Origin: a bacterium
Lineage (GTDB): Bacteria > Ratteibacteria > UBA8468 > B48-G9 > JAFGKM01
Direction: 5' to 3'
DNA: 64,000 nt
Assembly: GCA_023230585.1 (NCBI GenBank)
Contig: JALNXB010000005.1
Span: forward strand, 6,489 to 70,488
The stretch's first letter is position 1. Every line of letters begins with the position of its first letter. Made by a program: the position numbers and the translations under genes. Positions 3 through 62,930 of the stretch are shown one piece after another. The notes beneath the pieces are model-generated. The model searched no databases. It saw only the letters and a list, made by a program, of their open reading frames with translations, and was not told the origin of the DNA.

Positions 3-917
3 ATGATGAAAATGAAAATAAAAAAACTAAAAAAAGAGGTTCTACATTTATCTATCTTTATAAATTCTGTTATATTCTTCTATTTTTTGAAGGCAATGCC
101 AATATTTACCTACAAAACAATTAGTAGGTTTCTTGGAGTGTTATCTTTTGCTTTTATGGGCTCTACAAAAAAGAGAATCATAAATAATTTAAAGATATCT
201 TATGGTGACAAATTTAGTCTGGAAGAAAGAAAAGAGATTGGTAAGGATATATTTTCTAATATAGTTTTTTCTTTTTGTGAGTTGGTTGGAACAACAAAAC
301 TTAACACCCAACAAATTATAGATATGGCTGAAATAGAAGGCGAAGAAATACTAAAAAGCGCCTTAAAAACTGGTAAAGGTGTTGTTGGGGTATGCTCACA
401 TATGGGTAACTTTCCTTTACTTCAATATATCCTTGTAAAAAAAGGTTACCCTGCAAACGTTATAATTAAAGCTCCATCGGCGTCTCTTTTTGCTAAATTC
501 TGCGATAAACTTATAAGGGGAGCAGGGGTAACATATATTTCAAAACAAAACGCAAGAAAAACCATTACAGAAGCTCAAGATTGGATGGCAGCCAATAGAG
601 GTGTCCTCTCTTTTTACCTTGACCAGCACGCAAGCAACGGAACTCCTACTCAATTTTTTGGGAAGAAGGTCTTTGCTCCAAATGGGGCTGCTCTCTTTGC
701 AAAAAAATATAATTGCCTTGCTCTTGGGATTTTTTCTTATAGAATGAAAAGCGGTAAACATAAGATAATCATCGAAGGACCTTACCCATTGAAGGAGACC
801 AACAACATAAATGAAGACCTAATAGCAAACACCTCTTACTTTATGGAGAGAGTTGAGCATTATGTAAAAGCAGCTCCAGAACAATGGTTTTCGTGGCTCC
901 ACCGACGTTTTAGATAG
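3..917 (+). CDS. Lipid A biosynthesis (Kdo2-lipid IVA) acyltransferase family protein, LpxL/HtrB-like
   Basis: N-terminal TM helix followed by an acyltransferase domain with an H(X)4-type motif (CSHMGNFP) typical of the LpxL/LpxM lysophospholipid acyltransferase family; the 304-aa length fits. Confidence 0.55.
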   Translation: MMKMKIKKLKKEVLHLSIFINSVIFFYFLKAMPIFTYKTISRFLGVLSFAFMGSTKKRIINNLKISYGDKFSLEERKEIGKDIFSNIVFSFCELVGTTKLNTQQIIDMAEIEGEEILKSALKTGKGVVGVCSHMGNFPLLQYILVKKGYPANVIIKAPSASLFAKFCDKLIRGAGVTYISKQNARKTITEAQDWMAANRGVLSFYLDQHASNGTPTQFFGKKVFAPNGAALFAKKYNCLALGIFSYRMKSGKHKIIIEGPYPLKETNNINEDLIANTSYFMERVEHYVKAAPEQWFSWLHRRFR

Positions 918-963
918 CCATATATTCTTTTAAGCAAAACACTACAAATATCCTAAAAATTAG

Positions 964-1752
964 TTACCATTCCAACAGTTCTGGAGGATTATTTCCAATC
1001 TTTACCCACCAGAACGGTGTAGCAGTTTTGCGATGTTTTCTTGTTGCTTCAATAAAACGGACAGTATTTACTGACTCAACGTGTCCATCAACAAATAGAA
1101 GGTTCTGATGCCCTGAATGCCTGAAATGCGTCATTCCTGTCGCCGAGTAAGGAGCATCAATAGACCCAGAGTCAGCTTCAAAATTTTGGTGGTTGTAATA
1201 CGGGTGACCTGGTTTAAAGTAATTCTCCTCGGCAATTGCTTCTCCTATAATCCAGGCGTCAGACTGGTACTGAGTAATACGCCCTAAATTTATATATCCT
1301 GCAGTCCATAAAAGAGTCCATGTGCCAGAAACATACCCACCATTAAAGGGGTCTGCATTCCGTTCACTACGTCTTGCATAAGTCGCATTTGGTTTATTTG
1401 AGTCGGCTTGATAAGGCAAAGCTGATGGGCAAACGACTATATCAGGGGATATATATCCTTTAAGGGGTCCTGACCATACAGAATTTATCTTTATATGCAT
1501 CCAGTTTTCCCAATCCTCAGCATACATAGCAAGCCCCAAACCTACCTGTTTGAGGTTGTTTATACAGACGGCAGATTTTGCCCGTGCCCGTGCTTTAGAG
1601 AGTGCAGGCAGAAGCATACCTGCAAGGATAGCTATAATCGCTATGACTACCAGTAGTTCTATTAAAGTAAAACCTTGCCTTAAAAGGTTTAAAGTATTAG
1701 GTGCCTTAGATTTTTTTGAATGACATAAGATCGGCACTTTTGATTTTTTCAT
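964..1752 (-). CDS. Prepilin-type N-terminal cleavage/methylation domain protein, H-X9-DG (DUF1559) family
   Basis: Class III signal ...LLRQ|[33 protein letters not shown] and C-terminal [12 protein letters not shown] (H-X9-DG). Start taken at the internal Met (MKKSKVP...); the ORF extends upstream to 1812. Confidence 0.8.
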
Positions 1753-1851
1753 TTTTATCACCTCGCTTATTTTTTCAAATAATACAATTTTCACTTGAAA
1801 ACTCCCCTCCAATATATTACAGGGAAGTTTTAACTCTGTTTATACTCAACA

Positions 1852-2633
1852 TCAATACCCATCATTAAGGGTTCTTAATCTTCCATCACGGTTTGTCATA
1901 GATGTTGTGCTTCTGGTATTGTTAGGGACTGCCTCTTGAGGTATTTCTCTATATAGATGGCTGTCGCTACCACTGCGAGGCAAGGTAGATACCCATTTTG
2001 CGTGACCTCCAACATACAATATGTTTACGCCATCCCACCCATGGTTATGGTTTTTATGTGTGAAAAGATAACCGCTACCTGCTGGCTTTTCCCAGAATAC
2101 TTGAGAAAAATTGTAAGCCGCCTTAGTATCTGCCATAATAGCAGTGTCAGGGTGAGTCTGTATGTTTAACCCATAAGCATAAGCGTAAGAACAGGTCGGA
2201 GTTAAGTTAGATGCTACAGGGTCAGCAGCAGTGATGAGTTTACCAGGGATATTAACATCAGGTTTATGTGTAGTGCTTGGACATATAAATAGTTTGTAGT
2301 TTGTTACGTATGGTGTGGTGTGGTGTCAAGTTCAGGTGAATCGTTCCCTTCAGAGTCTTCAGGATATATCTGCCCGGTAAGTAGTGCAAGAGAAACATTT
2401 GTTACAGACCTGTCTACTTCGTGGTCGTGTGTAGGAAACCATCCATCCCAATCTTGAGCATAGATATATAAAACTACACCAAGCTGTTTAAGATTATTCA
2501 AGCAAGTAGCCCTGTTTGTCTTCTCTTTTGCTTTTGCCAACGCTGGAAGGAGCATTGCAGCAAGAATAGCTATAATAGCAATAACAACAAGTAGTTCGAT
2601 AAGAGTAAACCCGATATTTTTTTTATTTCTCAT
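1852..2633 (-). pseudogene. H-X9-DG/DUF1559 prepilin-like paralog disrupted by a frameshift (5-bp tandem duplication in a (TGGTG)3 tract at 2311-2326)
   Basis: ORF 2304..2633 encodes the prepilin N-terminus ([37 protein letters not shown]...ELDTTPHHT*). An offset frame from 2325 down to 1852 encodes the remainder ([12 protein letters not shown]...NHNHGWDGVNILYVGGH...), collinear with the intact paralog at 5428..6228. Deleting one ACACC unit (minus sense) gives a continuous ...[17 protein letters not shown]... Confidence 0.75.
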
Positions 2634-2698
2634 ACTGTGTCACCTCCTCTTATTATTGTTTTGTTAATATTTTTTTACCTTTTTACAAACAAATCTAT

Positions 2699-2736
2699 AT
2701 AAAAATTCGCCCTTGCTTATATTATAAAACAAGGGC
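2699..2736 (-). terminator. Rho-independent terminator candidate downstream of pcm
   Basis: Hairpin gcccttg-(14 nt loop)-caagggc at 2709-2736, followed on the minus strand by a U-rich run (plus-strand aaaaatt at 2701-2707). Confidence 0.5.
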
Positions 2737-2858
2737 GTGATTCGCTATTATTTTACCCTATCTATCAATTTTGTCAAAAATTCTAATTCCTATTAACCCC
2801 ACTTCTCGTTTCGTTTTTGTAGGAAGAGAAACTATAAAAGAACATCATTATATGTTTA

Positions 2859-3491
2859 CTACCAACCTTCTTTTCCTTCAAGATTTACAAATCGACACCC
2901 TCCAAGTTCCTCTATTACTCTTTTACCTTTAACTTTTTTTATAAGGGTCAATTCTTGATAATGTAAATCTCCGATAGGAATTACCATTCTACCTTCCTCT
3001 CTCAATTGGTTAAAGAGAGAGTTAGGCATAGTAGGTCCTCCGGCAGTAACTATTATTCCATCATAAGGGCTAAACTCCTGCCAACCGAGGGTTCCATCGC
3101 CAACTTTTATTTTTACATTGTAACCAAGTTGTTTCAAAACCTTTTCTGCTCTTTGGGCAAGTTCAGAACGTTTTTCAATTGAATATAGAACGCACCCCAT
3201 CTCTGCAAGTATAGCTGATTGGTAACCGCTTCCAGTTCCAATCTCAAGAATTTTATCATTCTTAGAAATGTTTAATGCCTGAGTCATAAGAGCAACAATA
3301 TAGGGTTGGCTTATTGTCTGACCTTCTCCTATAAGAACAGGCGAATCATTATAAGCAAAATGTCTTAAATCTTTTGGGACAAACAGTTCGCGAGGTACTC
3401 TTAAGAAAGCGTTTAGAACATTTTTATCTCTTATACCTCGAGGTATAAGTTGAGAATCTACCATCTCTTTTCTAAGTTTTAAAAAATCCAT
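2859..3491 (-). CDS. pcm: Protein-L-isoaspartate O-methyltransferase
   Basis: Motifs ISQPYIVALMTQAL and LEIGTGSGYQSAILAEM (SAM-binding); the 210-aa length is typical of PCMT. Confidence 0.9.
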   Translation of the reverse strand: MDFLKLRKEMVDSQLIPRGIRDKNVLNAFLRVPRELFVPKDLRHFAYNDSPVLIGEGQTISQPYIVALMTQALNISKNDKILEIGTGSGYQSAILAEMGCVLYSIEKRSELAQRAEKVLKQLGYNVKIKVGDGTLGWQEFSPYDGIIVTAGGPTMPNSLFNQLREEGRMVIPIGDLHYQELTLIKKVKGKRVIEELGGCRFVNLEGKEGW

Positions 3492-4655: not shown

Positions 4656-5405
4656 TTAGTCTCCCCAGGAAAGTTTTTTTTGTGTTTGATCTTGCAAAAG
4701 TATCCACCAAAAGCGGTAATTAGCAACTTCCCCTGTGTGAGTCATAGTTGCTTCTTGGAATCTATTTTCTGTTGCGGTTTCCACATGTCCATCCATAAAA
4801 AGAAGGTTTATTAAACCGTTATGCCGAAAATGTGCAGTTCCATAAGCACTCGGCGCAGTCATAGTCCCTTGCTGTGTGTTCATACGTTGGCATAGATAAT
4901 AAGAACCACCAGGCAAAGAATTCGCCCAGCCACCAGGTATTGGTATTGTAAAAGAATCAGCAAAAATCCATAAATCACTTCTTTTATAGTCTATTGCAGA
5001 AGGACGAAACCATCCACTTGACGCATTAAAATAAGTATTAGTATTCCCACCATAAAGATAACCGCTTCTCCACCCATAATAACTGTCAGCCGGGCTTCTT
5101 GTATATTCATAAGGTTTTGCTGAAGGGCAACATATAACCTTTGGGTCTATATATCCTGTATAATTCCCGTATGTTTTGCCTTCTTTTGGGTGTCCAGTAT
5201 TTATACGAGTGTTAGCCCATCCATCCCAATCCTCTGCATACATAAGGATACCTAAACCGACCTGTTTTAAGTTGCTAACACAGGTTGCTGCTTTAGCTCT
5301 TGCCCTTGCTTTACTCAAAGCAGGTAACAACATCCCTGCCAAAATTGCTATTATAGCAATAACCACAAGCAACTCTATTAGAGTAAAACCTTTTTTTCTT
5401 TTCAT
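4656..5405 (-). CDS. Prepilin-type N-terminal cleavage/methylation domain protein, H-X9-DG (DUF1559) family
   Basis: [38 protein letters not shown] leader plus pilin N-terminus; C-terminal [12 protein letters not shown] (H-X9-DG). Confidence 0.8.
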
Positions 5406-5427
5406 TAAATATCACCTCACTTGTTTT

Positions 5428-6228
5428 TTAATCCCACCATTTAGGAGAAGGCATCATCAAACGTGTTGGGCTATTATCCACTAAACTTTCGCCTTGATAA
5501 GGAGAAAAATAAAATTGTGATCTGTTGATAGCTAACCATTGGGCTATTCCAGGATTTCTTTTTGGTAAAGCGGCAGTAGATATTGTTGTGGCTCTACCAT
5601 CAACATAAAGAACATTTAACCCATCACAACCGTGGTTCTCATTCCTCTCGTACAGACGCCAGCCATACCCAGAACCAAAATCTGCTGCTGGTGCATCCAC
5701 CATAATAACAGTTTCTGGGTGTGTTTGCACGCTTAGACCAGCTGCATACATATAGGTTAGTGAGCACCCCTCTGGGGTTTTGTCTGCACTTAAACGAGTC
5801 GAAACATCCCTATATAGAGCGCCTTTAGGGTTTGTTGATGGTTTCCACCCGCTCTTATTTCCTGGGCAGATAAAGAGCCGATAATCTGATACATATTTTG
5901 GGGTTTCAAGAGATGGTTCTTCGGGGTTAGGCATACCTACAAGAAGTCCAAGAGAACAGTTGGTTTTTGATGAAAAATGTCCATAACCTGATGCAGAAGC
6001 CCAGTATGTATCATCAAAATTATAGTAAGGGAACCAGCCGCCCCAATCTTGAGCGTACATATTTAAAGCAAGACCTAATTGCCTCAAGTTATTCATACAA
6101 GCTGTCATCCGTGCTCTTGCCCTTGCTCTGTCGAGGGCTGGTAACAACATAGAAGCTAAAATCCCTATAATAGCAATAACAACAAGCAATTCTATAAGAG
6201 TAAACCCTCTTTTTTGTTTTTCTCTCAT
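5428..6228 (-). CDS. Prepilin-type N-terminal cleavage/methylation domain protein, H-X9-DG-like (DUF1559) family
   Basis: [40 protein letters not shown]; C-terminal [16 protein letters not shown]. Confidence 0.8.
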
Positions 6229-6444
6229 ACTTATATCACCTCCTTATTTTTTTCAATAAACCTGCCTGTATAATCTCTGTTGGTATTACTCAAACAGAGT
6301 TATATTTAATATATTAGTACAGATGCACAGAGGTCAAAAAAAGTAGAGACTCACTCAAATTTTTAAACTTAACTCTAATTCTATTCTACCTTTTTACATT
6401 AAATTTTGTCAAGTTTTAGGTATAGGAAGGTGAATACCACCGTT

Positions 6445-9202: not shown

Positions 9203-9979
9203 TTAATTAATAAGAAATCCCATAAAGGTTAAACCTTTGTAGAAGAGTGAAATAATAGCCCCTATACCAAGATAGGGTCCAAAAGGCACATAATCTTCGA
9301 CCGTCTTCTTTTTTGTTACTATAAGAAAAAGACTTATAATTGTCCCTAAAAGAGAAGCAAAAAAGAGTGTTAAAAAGACGCTTTTCCAACCCAGAAAAGC
9401 CCCTATCATAGCAAGAAGTTTTACGTCTCCACCTCCCATTGCTTCTTTTTTAAAAAGAAACTTTCCAAACAAACTTAAAAAAATAAGAAGTCCACCACCT
9501 AATAAGATACCGAAAACAGAATATAGCAAACTTTGGATATTTGAAAGGCCGGTATGCATACTTGGGAAAAGAAAAGATAAGATAGGTCCTAAAACAACCA
9601 ACGGTAGAACAAAAACATCCGAAATAAGAAACGTGTCTATATCAATAAACCCTACTATTAAAAGAGAGTAAACAAAAAGTGTGTAAATAAAAAAGGCGGG
9701 ACTTAAACCAAACTTGTTAAATATAAGAAGAAATAGTATACCACTTAGAAGTTCAACCAAAAAATATCTTGCAGAAATTTTTTCACCACAAAATCTACAT
9801 TTTCCTTTTAATATAAGAAAACTCAAAAGTGGGATGTTGTCATAAAATTTTATGCTCTTACCACATTTAACACAAGATGAACCAGGGTTTATAAGAGATT
9901 TCCCTTTTGGTAATCTTAAAATAACAACATTAGCAAAACTTCCAAAAATAAGACCAAGTATAAATATAAGTATTTCCAT
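9203..9979 (-). CDS. pilD: Type IV prepilin peptidase / N-methyltransferase (A24 family)
   Basis: N-terminal CVKCG...CRFCG zinc-binding tetracysteine motif and a multi-TM A24 peptidase body (GGGDVKLLAMIGAFLGW). Confidence 0.85.
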   Translation of the reverse strand: MEILIFILGLIFGSFANVVILRLPKGKSLINPGSSCVKCGKSIKFYDNIPLLSFLILKGKCRFCGEKISARYFLVELLSGILFLLIFNKFGLSPAFFIYTLFVYSLLIVGFIDIDTFLISDVFVLPLVVLGPILSFLFPSMHTGLSNIQSLLYSVFGILLGGGLLIFLSLFGKFLFKKEAMGGGDVKLLAMIGAFLGWKSVFLTLFFASLLGTIISLFLIVTKKKTVEDYVPFGPYLGIGAIISLFYKGLTFMGFLIN

Positions 9980-10734: not shown

Positions 10735-10965
10735 CCGAAGGTCAGACCTTCGTTTTCTCTTAGTTGCAAGCCTCTGCAAAGACAACTCCCCCTCCACCTA
10801 TGCCAAGGCATACCTGCCGAAGCTTGTATTTTAGAGTAGGTTGGCTTCGGTGGATAAACCTCGCAAGACAAAATACAAAAGACGGAATGGGGCAAAGACG
10901 TAAAGACCCCCTCACCCTTAATCCCTCTCCCCCAAGGGTAGAGGGCAAAAATGGGGAGTGAGTAG
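10735..10965. repeat. GC-rich composite intergenic repeat element, copy A (modules M5 palindrome, M1, M2, M3)
   Basis: Shares 35-50 nt near-identical modules with 25400-25677, 50590-50793 and 62560-62930. Examples: ccaagg.atacctgccgaagcttgtattttag.gtaggttgg; ctcgcaagac.aa.tacaaaagacggaatgggg; ccctcaccctt.atccctctccc.caaggg.aga.ggcaaaaa. Also contains the palindrome cgaaggtcagaccttcg at 10736-10752. Confidence 0.8.
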
Positions 10966-25399: not shown

Positions 25400-25677
25400 T
25401 AAGCCAACCTACGCTAACCTACAAGCTTCGGCAGGTATACCTTGACGCAGGTTGAAACGCTTTATGTGACTGGGCAGTCTCTCTTTTATCTTATACACTA
25501 TTGTTTATTCCCATTCCTTTTTCGCCTTCGGCGGGATTGCCACGCCAAAAAACGCCCTCCTACGCCAAGGCTTTGGTGGATAAAGCTCGCAAGACAAACT
25601 ACAAAAGACGGAATGGGGGAAAACTAACAGCCCATCCCCATACGCTACACTTGACTAAGACGAAGGTCTGACCTTCG
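25400..25677. repeat. GC-rich composite intergenic repeat element, copy B (inverted M1, M4, M2, M5 palindrome)
   Basis: 25404-25441 is the reverse complement of module M1 (ccaacctacgctaacctacaagcttcggcaggtatacc); 25487-25545 matches 62628-62687 (tatc.tatacactattgt...cattcctttt.cgcct.cggcg.gattgccacg); 25586-25619 is module M2; palindrome cgaaggtctgaccttcg at 25660-25676. Confidence 0.8.
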
Positions 25678-62559: not shown

Positions 62560-62930
62560 CTTGTCTTACGAGGAGCGTCTTAGCCCGAATGCTTTCTGAG
62601 GGATTGCGACGTGGTAATCCTCGTCTTTATCCTATACACTATTGTCCCCACCCTCATTCCTTTTCCGCCTACGGCGAGATTGCCACGTTACGAAGCCCCT
62701 CCTACGCCAAGGTATACCTGCCGAAGCTTGTATTTTAGCGTAGGTTGGCTACGGCGGGTAAAACTCGCAAGACTAACTACAAAAGACGGAATGGGGGTAA
62801 CGTAAAAAAACAAAAGCATAAAGCCCCCTCACCCTTGATCCCTCTCCCTCAAGGGGAGAAGGCAAAAAAAAGGGAAGGTGTATGCGCCGTAGTCCCAGAG
62901 TGAGTAAATAACACCCCATACGCCTTTCTT
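62560..62930. repeat. GC-rich composite intergenic repeat element, copy D (most complete: M4, M1, M2, M3 plus flanking inverted repeats)
   Basis: 62628-62687 is M4; 62701-62748 is M1 (with a cctacgc...gcgtagg stem); 62764-62797 is M2; 62824-62871 is M3. Internal inverted repeat acgagga(62570)...tcctcgt(62618); ctacggcg appears at 62669 and 62749 and as cgccgtag at 62886. Confidence 0.8.

Follow-up and report, generated by a model that had tools for sequence, protein, structure and literature searches.

A 5-bp tandem duplication within a short pentanucleotide repeat interrupts a type-A pilin-like gene on the minus strand of the window (here, the whole 64-kb stretch of DNA that was analysed). 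The disrupted gene is very probably a recent, ordinary loss-of-function pseudogene generated by slippage within an accessory cassette of pilin-like paralogues, and no dedicated contingency switch.

A one-unit pentamer expansion splits a pilin-like gene

The features needed to describe the lesion are as follows.

1852..2633, minus strand: whole disrupted type-A pilin-like gene, 258 aa when repaired, with the class III (prepilin) leader MRNKKNIG/FTLIE
2304..2633, minus strand: 5′ fragment ORF of 109 aa, encoding leader, alpha-1 helix and a further short helix before ending in HHT and the stop codon
2311..2326, minus strand: tandem pentamer tract carrying the frame-shifting 5-bp duplication, (ACACC)3+A on the coding strand and (TGGTG)3+T on the plus strand
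1852..2310, minus strand: remaining 3′ portion, about 150 codons lying in the -1 frame, assigned from the sequence and the homologue alignment
1852..2136, minus strand: 94-aa ORF inside the 3′ part, NCBI hypothetical protein MCK9265643.1
4656..6228, minus strand: second, intact A-B cassette used as the collinear reference (type A, 266 aa, 5428..6228; type B, 249 aa, 4656..5405)

On the plus strand, positions 2311-2326 read TGGTGTGGTGTGGTGT, i.e. three perfect TGGTG units (2311-2325) followed by one base of a fourth. The coding strand at the break reads CTT GAC ACC ACA CCA CAC CAT ACG TAA (minus), and ORF 2304..2633 (minus) accordingly ends after 109 aa with ELDTTPHHT and the stop. The -1 frame is open from approximately 2325 down to a stop at 1852 (minus), and its product includes HNHGWDGVNILYVGGH / HNHGWDGVNILYVGGHAKW. 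No second stop or indel was found in the 3′ part of the gene (1852..2310, about 150 codons). Removing one ACACC unit in silico yielded a continuous 258-aa protein that aligned without a gap at the junction to 26 homologues (the neighbour 5428..6228 and 25 database sequences), among which the junction consensus is xLETPxYVTDYKLFICPS, and that retained 37 of the 37 invariant columns of this alignment.

The initial annotation had described a split gene at these positions, collinear with the intact neighbour 5428..6228 and interrupted by the expansion of a pentamer repeat by one unit (5 bp). Because the break coincides exactly with the tract, and because the alignment is gap-free with all 37 invariant columns retained, that observation was correct: the coordinates and reading frames agree with the sequence and the ORF translations, the junction aligns to the neighbour without a gap, and unit removal restores the frame of a gene with no other visible lesion.

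We computed the reading frame as a function of unit number. Two or five units give a full-length product, while one, three, four or six units give a truncated one. The tract at 2311-2326 is the single three-unit pentamer tract in the 64-kb window, where a first-order Markov model gives an expectation of 0.15. Two-unit pentamer tracts number 67 of ten bases and 14 of eleven bases in the window, and the putative ancestral sequence, (ACACC)2A, would be one of these. The three-unit tract is a product of the duplication and not a pre-existing hotspot.

In the source metagenome-assembled genome at NCBI, which carries locus tags beginning M0P98_, the 94-aa ORF is recorded as MCK9265643.1; for the 109-aa piece, NCBI yielded no protein record. 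For annotation, the 109-aa and 94-aa ORFs should be treated as one pseudogene and not as two proteins.

The lesion is present in assemblies of five samples

The exact 109-aa product is encoded in contigs of five samples (ERZ27247376, ERZ27247346, SRR6484323, SRR8449813 and JGI 3300028603). The five carrier contigs come from ENA, Logan and JGI assemblies, and over stretches of up to 1.9 kb (1,900 bp) they show 100% identity to the window; being identical over the compared region, they constitute one population sample and not independent evolutionary replicates. Since the same three-unit sequence stands in five assemblies, the 5-bp lesion is genuine and not an assembly error.

It is scarcely credible that the true genome contains two units and an intact gene, with the third unit introduced during sequencing or assembly. 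Short tandem repeats are prone to miscalling and the source is a metagenome-assembled genome; however, the identical three-unit sequence occurs in contigs from all five samples, the tract is built of a 5-bp unit and is not a homopolymer, and no comparable split ORF occurs elsewhere in the window. Long, closely spaced ORFs cover 92% of the window with no other split region apparent, as judged by ORF spacing and not by homology.

The truncated product lacks the predicted globular domain

The repaired protein matched PF07963 with 35.9 bits (cut-off 21.2) and TIGR02532 with 26.7 bits (cut-off 16.3), and it possesses a class III signal peptide, consisting of G/F-x-x-x-E followed by the hydrophobic alpha-1 helix. 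A predicted structure model of the repaired protein places a helix at 11-61, and the fold is modelled as a long alpha-1 helix followed by a beta-sheet globular domain. The 109-aa stub is without the entire predicted beta-sheet domain. Lost with it are C116, H196 and G208, which are invariant in the family, and C146 and G207, which are nearly so. The full-length gene product is probably surface-exposed.

Against PF07596 (DUF1559, SBP_bac_10), the repaired protein scored 20.5 bits, below the threshold of 23.3, with only approximately the first 45 profile positions matching, whereas the neighbour 5428..6228 scored 36.5 bits and exceeded the same threshold. The broken gene had initially been assigned an H-X9-DG motif; the motif is actually H-X10-GG (H196...G207 G208), the C-terminal motif of the subfamily, which is invariant or nearly so in the alignment. 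In type-A genes the motif takes the form H-X10-GG or H-X10-DG. The GG is common to the homologues and so does not represent a defect. TIGR04294 matched neither the C-terminal half of the broken gene nor that of the neighbour 5428..6228, even at E<=10.

DUF1559/prepilin-type proteins are expanded in Planctomycetes, Verrucomicrobia and candidate phyla. With the proteins of this set (PF07596 and PF07963) the repaired protein shares the G/FTLIE class III leader, a C-terminal His...Gly-Gly/Asp-Gly motif and an N-terminal DUF1559 match, and its genome, like theirs, carries several paralogues. It differs from them in its sub-threshold PF07596 score, in having H-X10-GG and not H-X9-DG, in leaving TIGR04294 unmatched, and in belonging to a fixed A-B pair. 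A literature search on DUF1559 returned no paper that ties the family to prepilins or to phase variation.

The sequence around the break does not resemble a recoding site

The three-unit allele might still yield full-length protein if ribosomes changed frame at the tract, either by a programmed -1 frameshift or by a 5-nt hop. The repeat renders take-off and landing codons 5 nt apart identical (ACC to ACC, ACA to ACA, CCA to CCA), and the downstream frame is fully intact. However, an X XXY YYZ slippery heptamer is absent from the 24-nt overlap of the two frames, and the 116-nt RNA that spans the site and extends 3′ of it has a predicted stability of -5.9 kcal/mol (z = +1.21), less stable than its shuffled counterparts. 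Moreover, 0 of the 26 aligned homologues need a frameshift, and the orthologue is without the repeat. The heptamer, the downstream structure and the conserved shift that characterize programmed -1 frameshifting are therefore all missing, the homologues being single ORFs, and we regard recoding of the three-unit allele as highly improbable.

Phase variation of the tract is unlikely

The initial annotation had interpreted the tract as a candidate slipped-strand switch, by which changes in unit number would toggle a surface pilin-like protein between ON (two or five units) and OFF (three or four units). Several observations are in keeping with such a switch. The frameshift lies within a perfect tandem repeat in which a one-unit change restores the frame, the gene is otherwise intact, its product is pilin-like and likely to reach the surface, and both ON and OFF alleles of the orthologue likewise occur in a sister-species population. 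As in contingency loci, the unit number of a simple sequence repeat sets the reading frame. The arrangement also recalls Neisseria opa (CTCTT/CTTCT repeats), where a pentamer repeat likewise lies in the 5′ coding region of a surface-protein gene and changes in unit number shift the frame.

The length of the tract speaks against this mechanism. Pentanucleotide tracts count as phase-variable at five units or more, and opa alleles with one to four pentamers are classed as non-variable (PMC5953494, PMC6321876). Phase-variable pentamer tracts in Neisseria span 5-24 units (PMC5953494), in contrast to the three units found here (two in the working state), which show no length polymorphism and are not conserved.

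At the level of assemblies, the tract had three units in 5/5 cases and no two-unit variant was seen, a comparison of consensus sequences in which minority two-unit reads are invisible. Exact look-ups of the products expected from one, two, four, five and six units in a collection of 15 billion proteins found none, and all contigs recovered via the partner gene or the 94-aa ORF show the 109 + 94 aa split upstream of the partner. We relied on these exact and neighbour-gene context look-ups to judge absence because a homologue search with the repaired protein missed the known 109-aa fragment, although this exact sequence serves as a cluster representative in that collection. A search for related loci, in which the repaired protein was compared with genome and metagenome contigs, recovered near-full-length relatives at no more than 57% identity, with short N-terminal segments reaching 70%; no second strain of the broken locus was found in those two collections, both of which exclude the source genome. 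An exact DNA pattern allowing a variable gap at the tract gave 0 hits among the metagenome contigs, from which even known carriers of the locus are evidently missing.

The tract is also not retained among orthologues and paralogues. The closest orthologue (74% amino acid identity) reads GAT ACT CCT CCA TAC at the corresponding site and contains no pentamer repeat, and no tandem repeats of 4-7-bp units were found in the 11 homologous loci scanned. Furthermore, the OFF alleles of relatives are a point nonsense mutation and a deletion, neither of which is a reversible switch.

Taken together, these findings make slipped-strand phase variation of this gene unlikely. The phase-variation headline of the initial annotation is not supported, given the shortness of the tract, the lack of length variants in assemblies, the lack of conservation and the non-reversible losses in relatives, whereas the real 5-bp expansion stands, as does the fallback that the annotation had offered, a fresh pseudogene within a paralogue array, which fits the evidence. 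More generally, a frameshift in a three-unit repeat is no evidence of phase variation unless the tract varies in length or is conserved.

Relatives have lost the type-A gene by other routes

Three knock-outs of the type-A gene are found among close relatives: the 5-bp duplication described here, an AAG to TAG substitution, and a deletion of 1.8 kb. The segment affected by the deletion, in a strain (L014) that is approximately 95% identical, corresponds to the following part of the window.

1042..2851: segment missing in L014, which removes the broken gene and most of its partner gene

The deletion spans 1,810 bp between two AAACAT microhomologies and leaves the 3′-terminal 26 codons of the partner gene, indicating that the cassette was once present in L014 and was later lost.

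In the sister species, the type-A orthologue exists as two alleles, an intact one beginning ATG AAA AAG (245 aa; one assembly, L038) and one beginning ATG AAA TAG, with a stop at codon 3 (four assemblies, L007-L010). The L038 contig differs from the TAG contigs at 2 of 3,460 bases (99.94% identity). Reassignment of TAG was considered for the stop in the orthologue and rejected, since TAG terminates the PCMT gene both in the window and in L016, and since the AAG allele exists.

The ratio dN/dS between the repaired gene and its sister-species orthologue is approximately 0.06, with dS saturated, and that of the intact partner genes is approximately 0.13. The low value indicates that the gene was constrained until recently and that both lesions, the duplication and the nonsense mutation, are young. 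From these sequence comparisons, the type-A gene looks expendable, as it is lineage-specific and is deleted or knocked out in close relatives.

Origin and persistence of the three-unit allele

According to the model that we favour, the ancestral sequence GAC ACC ACA CCA (D-T-T-P) would by chance have constituted an 11-bp direct repeat, (ACACC)2A. As the structure of the repeat suggests, one 5-bp unit may then have been duplicated by misalignment in the course of replication or repair. The duplication puts everything downstream of it in the -1 frame, where a stop four codons on yields the 109-aa stub, and the three-unit allele is now the consensus state in this clone. Its persistence would follow if the gene is dispensable, or if losing it is favoured. 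Contraction from three units to two would restore the gene, and with three units this is expected to occur near background indel rates, no sign of a useful rate having been seen; for this reason the tract is not regarded as a dedicated contingency switch.

The absence of a second inactivating lesion fits a very recent event, and it also fits a maintained reversible OFF state. Switches evolve where selection fluctuates, and selection of that kind could account for the repeated knock-outs among relatives. Because three knock-outs have arisen despite long and strong purifying selection (dN/dS about 0.06), loss may be under positive selection in these communities, for example through a phage or predator that uses the protein as its receptor. 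The repeat would then provide a low-rate but genuinely reversible escape route, i.e. a proto-contingency locus; we consider this a minor possibility.

Recent, ordinary slippage remains the preferred reading, and it places the gene among the frameshift pseudogenes that arise by short tandem duplication in expanded families. As in these, one unit of a direct repeat is duplicated, a stop follows within a few codons, the remainder of the gene is intact, and the affected gene is an accessory paralogue that is absent from or deleted in relatives. Nothing material differs from this class, the unusual element here being the independent losses in two relatives (a nonsense codon and a deletion). The direct importance of the finding is small.

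A lineage-specific A-B cassette

The broken gene and its partner occupy a cassette; the cassette and features near it are as follows.

3..917: Lip_A_acyltrans gene flanking the cassette
917..2847: lineage-specific cassette insertion (approximate extent) between the convergent PCMT and Lip_A_acyltrans genes
964..1752, minus strand: intact type-B partner gene, 262 aa, with canonical H-X9-DG spacing and a weak TIGR04294 match (12.4 bits; cut-off 19)
2859..3491: PCMT gene flanking the cassette
9203..9979: probable prepilin peptidase, so assigned because the nucleotide sequence matches the Peptidase_A24 gene in L016

In relatives whose PCMT is 81% and 69% identical, the PCMT and Lip_A_acyltrans genes are directly convergent and 6-30 bp apart, with no pilin-like genes between them. 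This adjacency indicates that the broken gene and its partner are a lineage-specific insertion. When closer variants of the partner gene (B2) were sought, nothing was found beyond B2 and relatives at 69% and 66% identity, and hence no intermediate cassette-bearing strain. An Rfam scan of the window found four tRNAs, none of them near the broken gene.

The window contains four pilin-like paralogues in two A-B pairs, one of 266 + 249 aa and the other formed by the broken gene and its 262-aa partner. Pilin-like genes were always found paired, with a type-B gene (H-X9-DG) lying 22-110 bp downstream of the type-A gene (YVGGH / H-X10-GG or H-X10-DG). Such pairs were located at 964-2633 and 4656-6228 in the window, and at 1110-2684 in L007, 1-1507 in L011, 5060-6632 in L013 and 194-1766 in L038. 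The constancy of the pairing suggests a two-gene functional module.

In L013 (ERZ27247376 k141_1120589), a strain of approximately 90% identity recovered in the same sample, the cassette of 266 + 249 aa lies 3′ of leuA-leuC-leuD-leuB-like genes. This counterpart of window 4658-6245 is not downstream of GT2/RecG, and a copy of an interspersed repeat of about 100 bp follows the cassette. On this comparison of gene order, the second cassette appears to have moved, or its region to have been rearranged, relative to L013. Copies of the intergenic repeat, 90-94% identical to one another, are found in the window at 10784-10892, 62701-62796, 25401-25444 and 25569-25618, and further copies lie at 6782-6975 in L013 and at 1557-1594 in L014. 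Among strains of this uncultivated lineage, DUF1559-like pilin genes travel as A-B pairs that undergo gain, relocation, mutation and deletion, a turnover that may interest those who study expanded DUF1559-like families.

Window 2708-2777 (minus), in the interval that separates the PCMT stop from the broken gene's start, contains a promoter-like TTGACA-16-TAAAAT (11/12 matches) followed by a terminator-like hairpin (11 pairs and a T-run). These elements are candidates for a PCMT terminator or for a leader element of the cassette. Three short, independent contigs (L003, L004 and L005) start within 5 bp of one another, at window positions of about 2684-2688, just 5′ of the ribosome-binding site of the broken gene; their coincidence hints at a branch in the assembly graph, such as would arise from upstream strain variation.

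Finally, the type-B partner (window 964-1812, minus) has a leader before G/FTLIE of 25 aa when read from the ATG, or of 45 aa if translation starts at an upstream TTG. Leaders in the paralogues and the orthologue are about 5-8 aa in length, and that of the partner is therefore unusually long.
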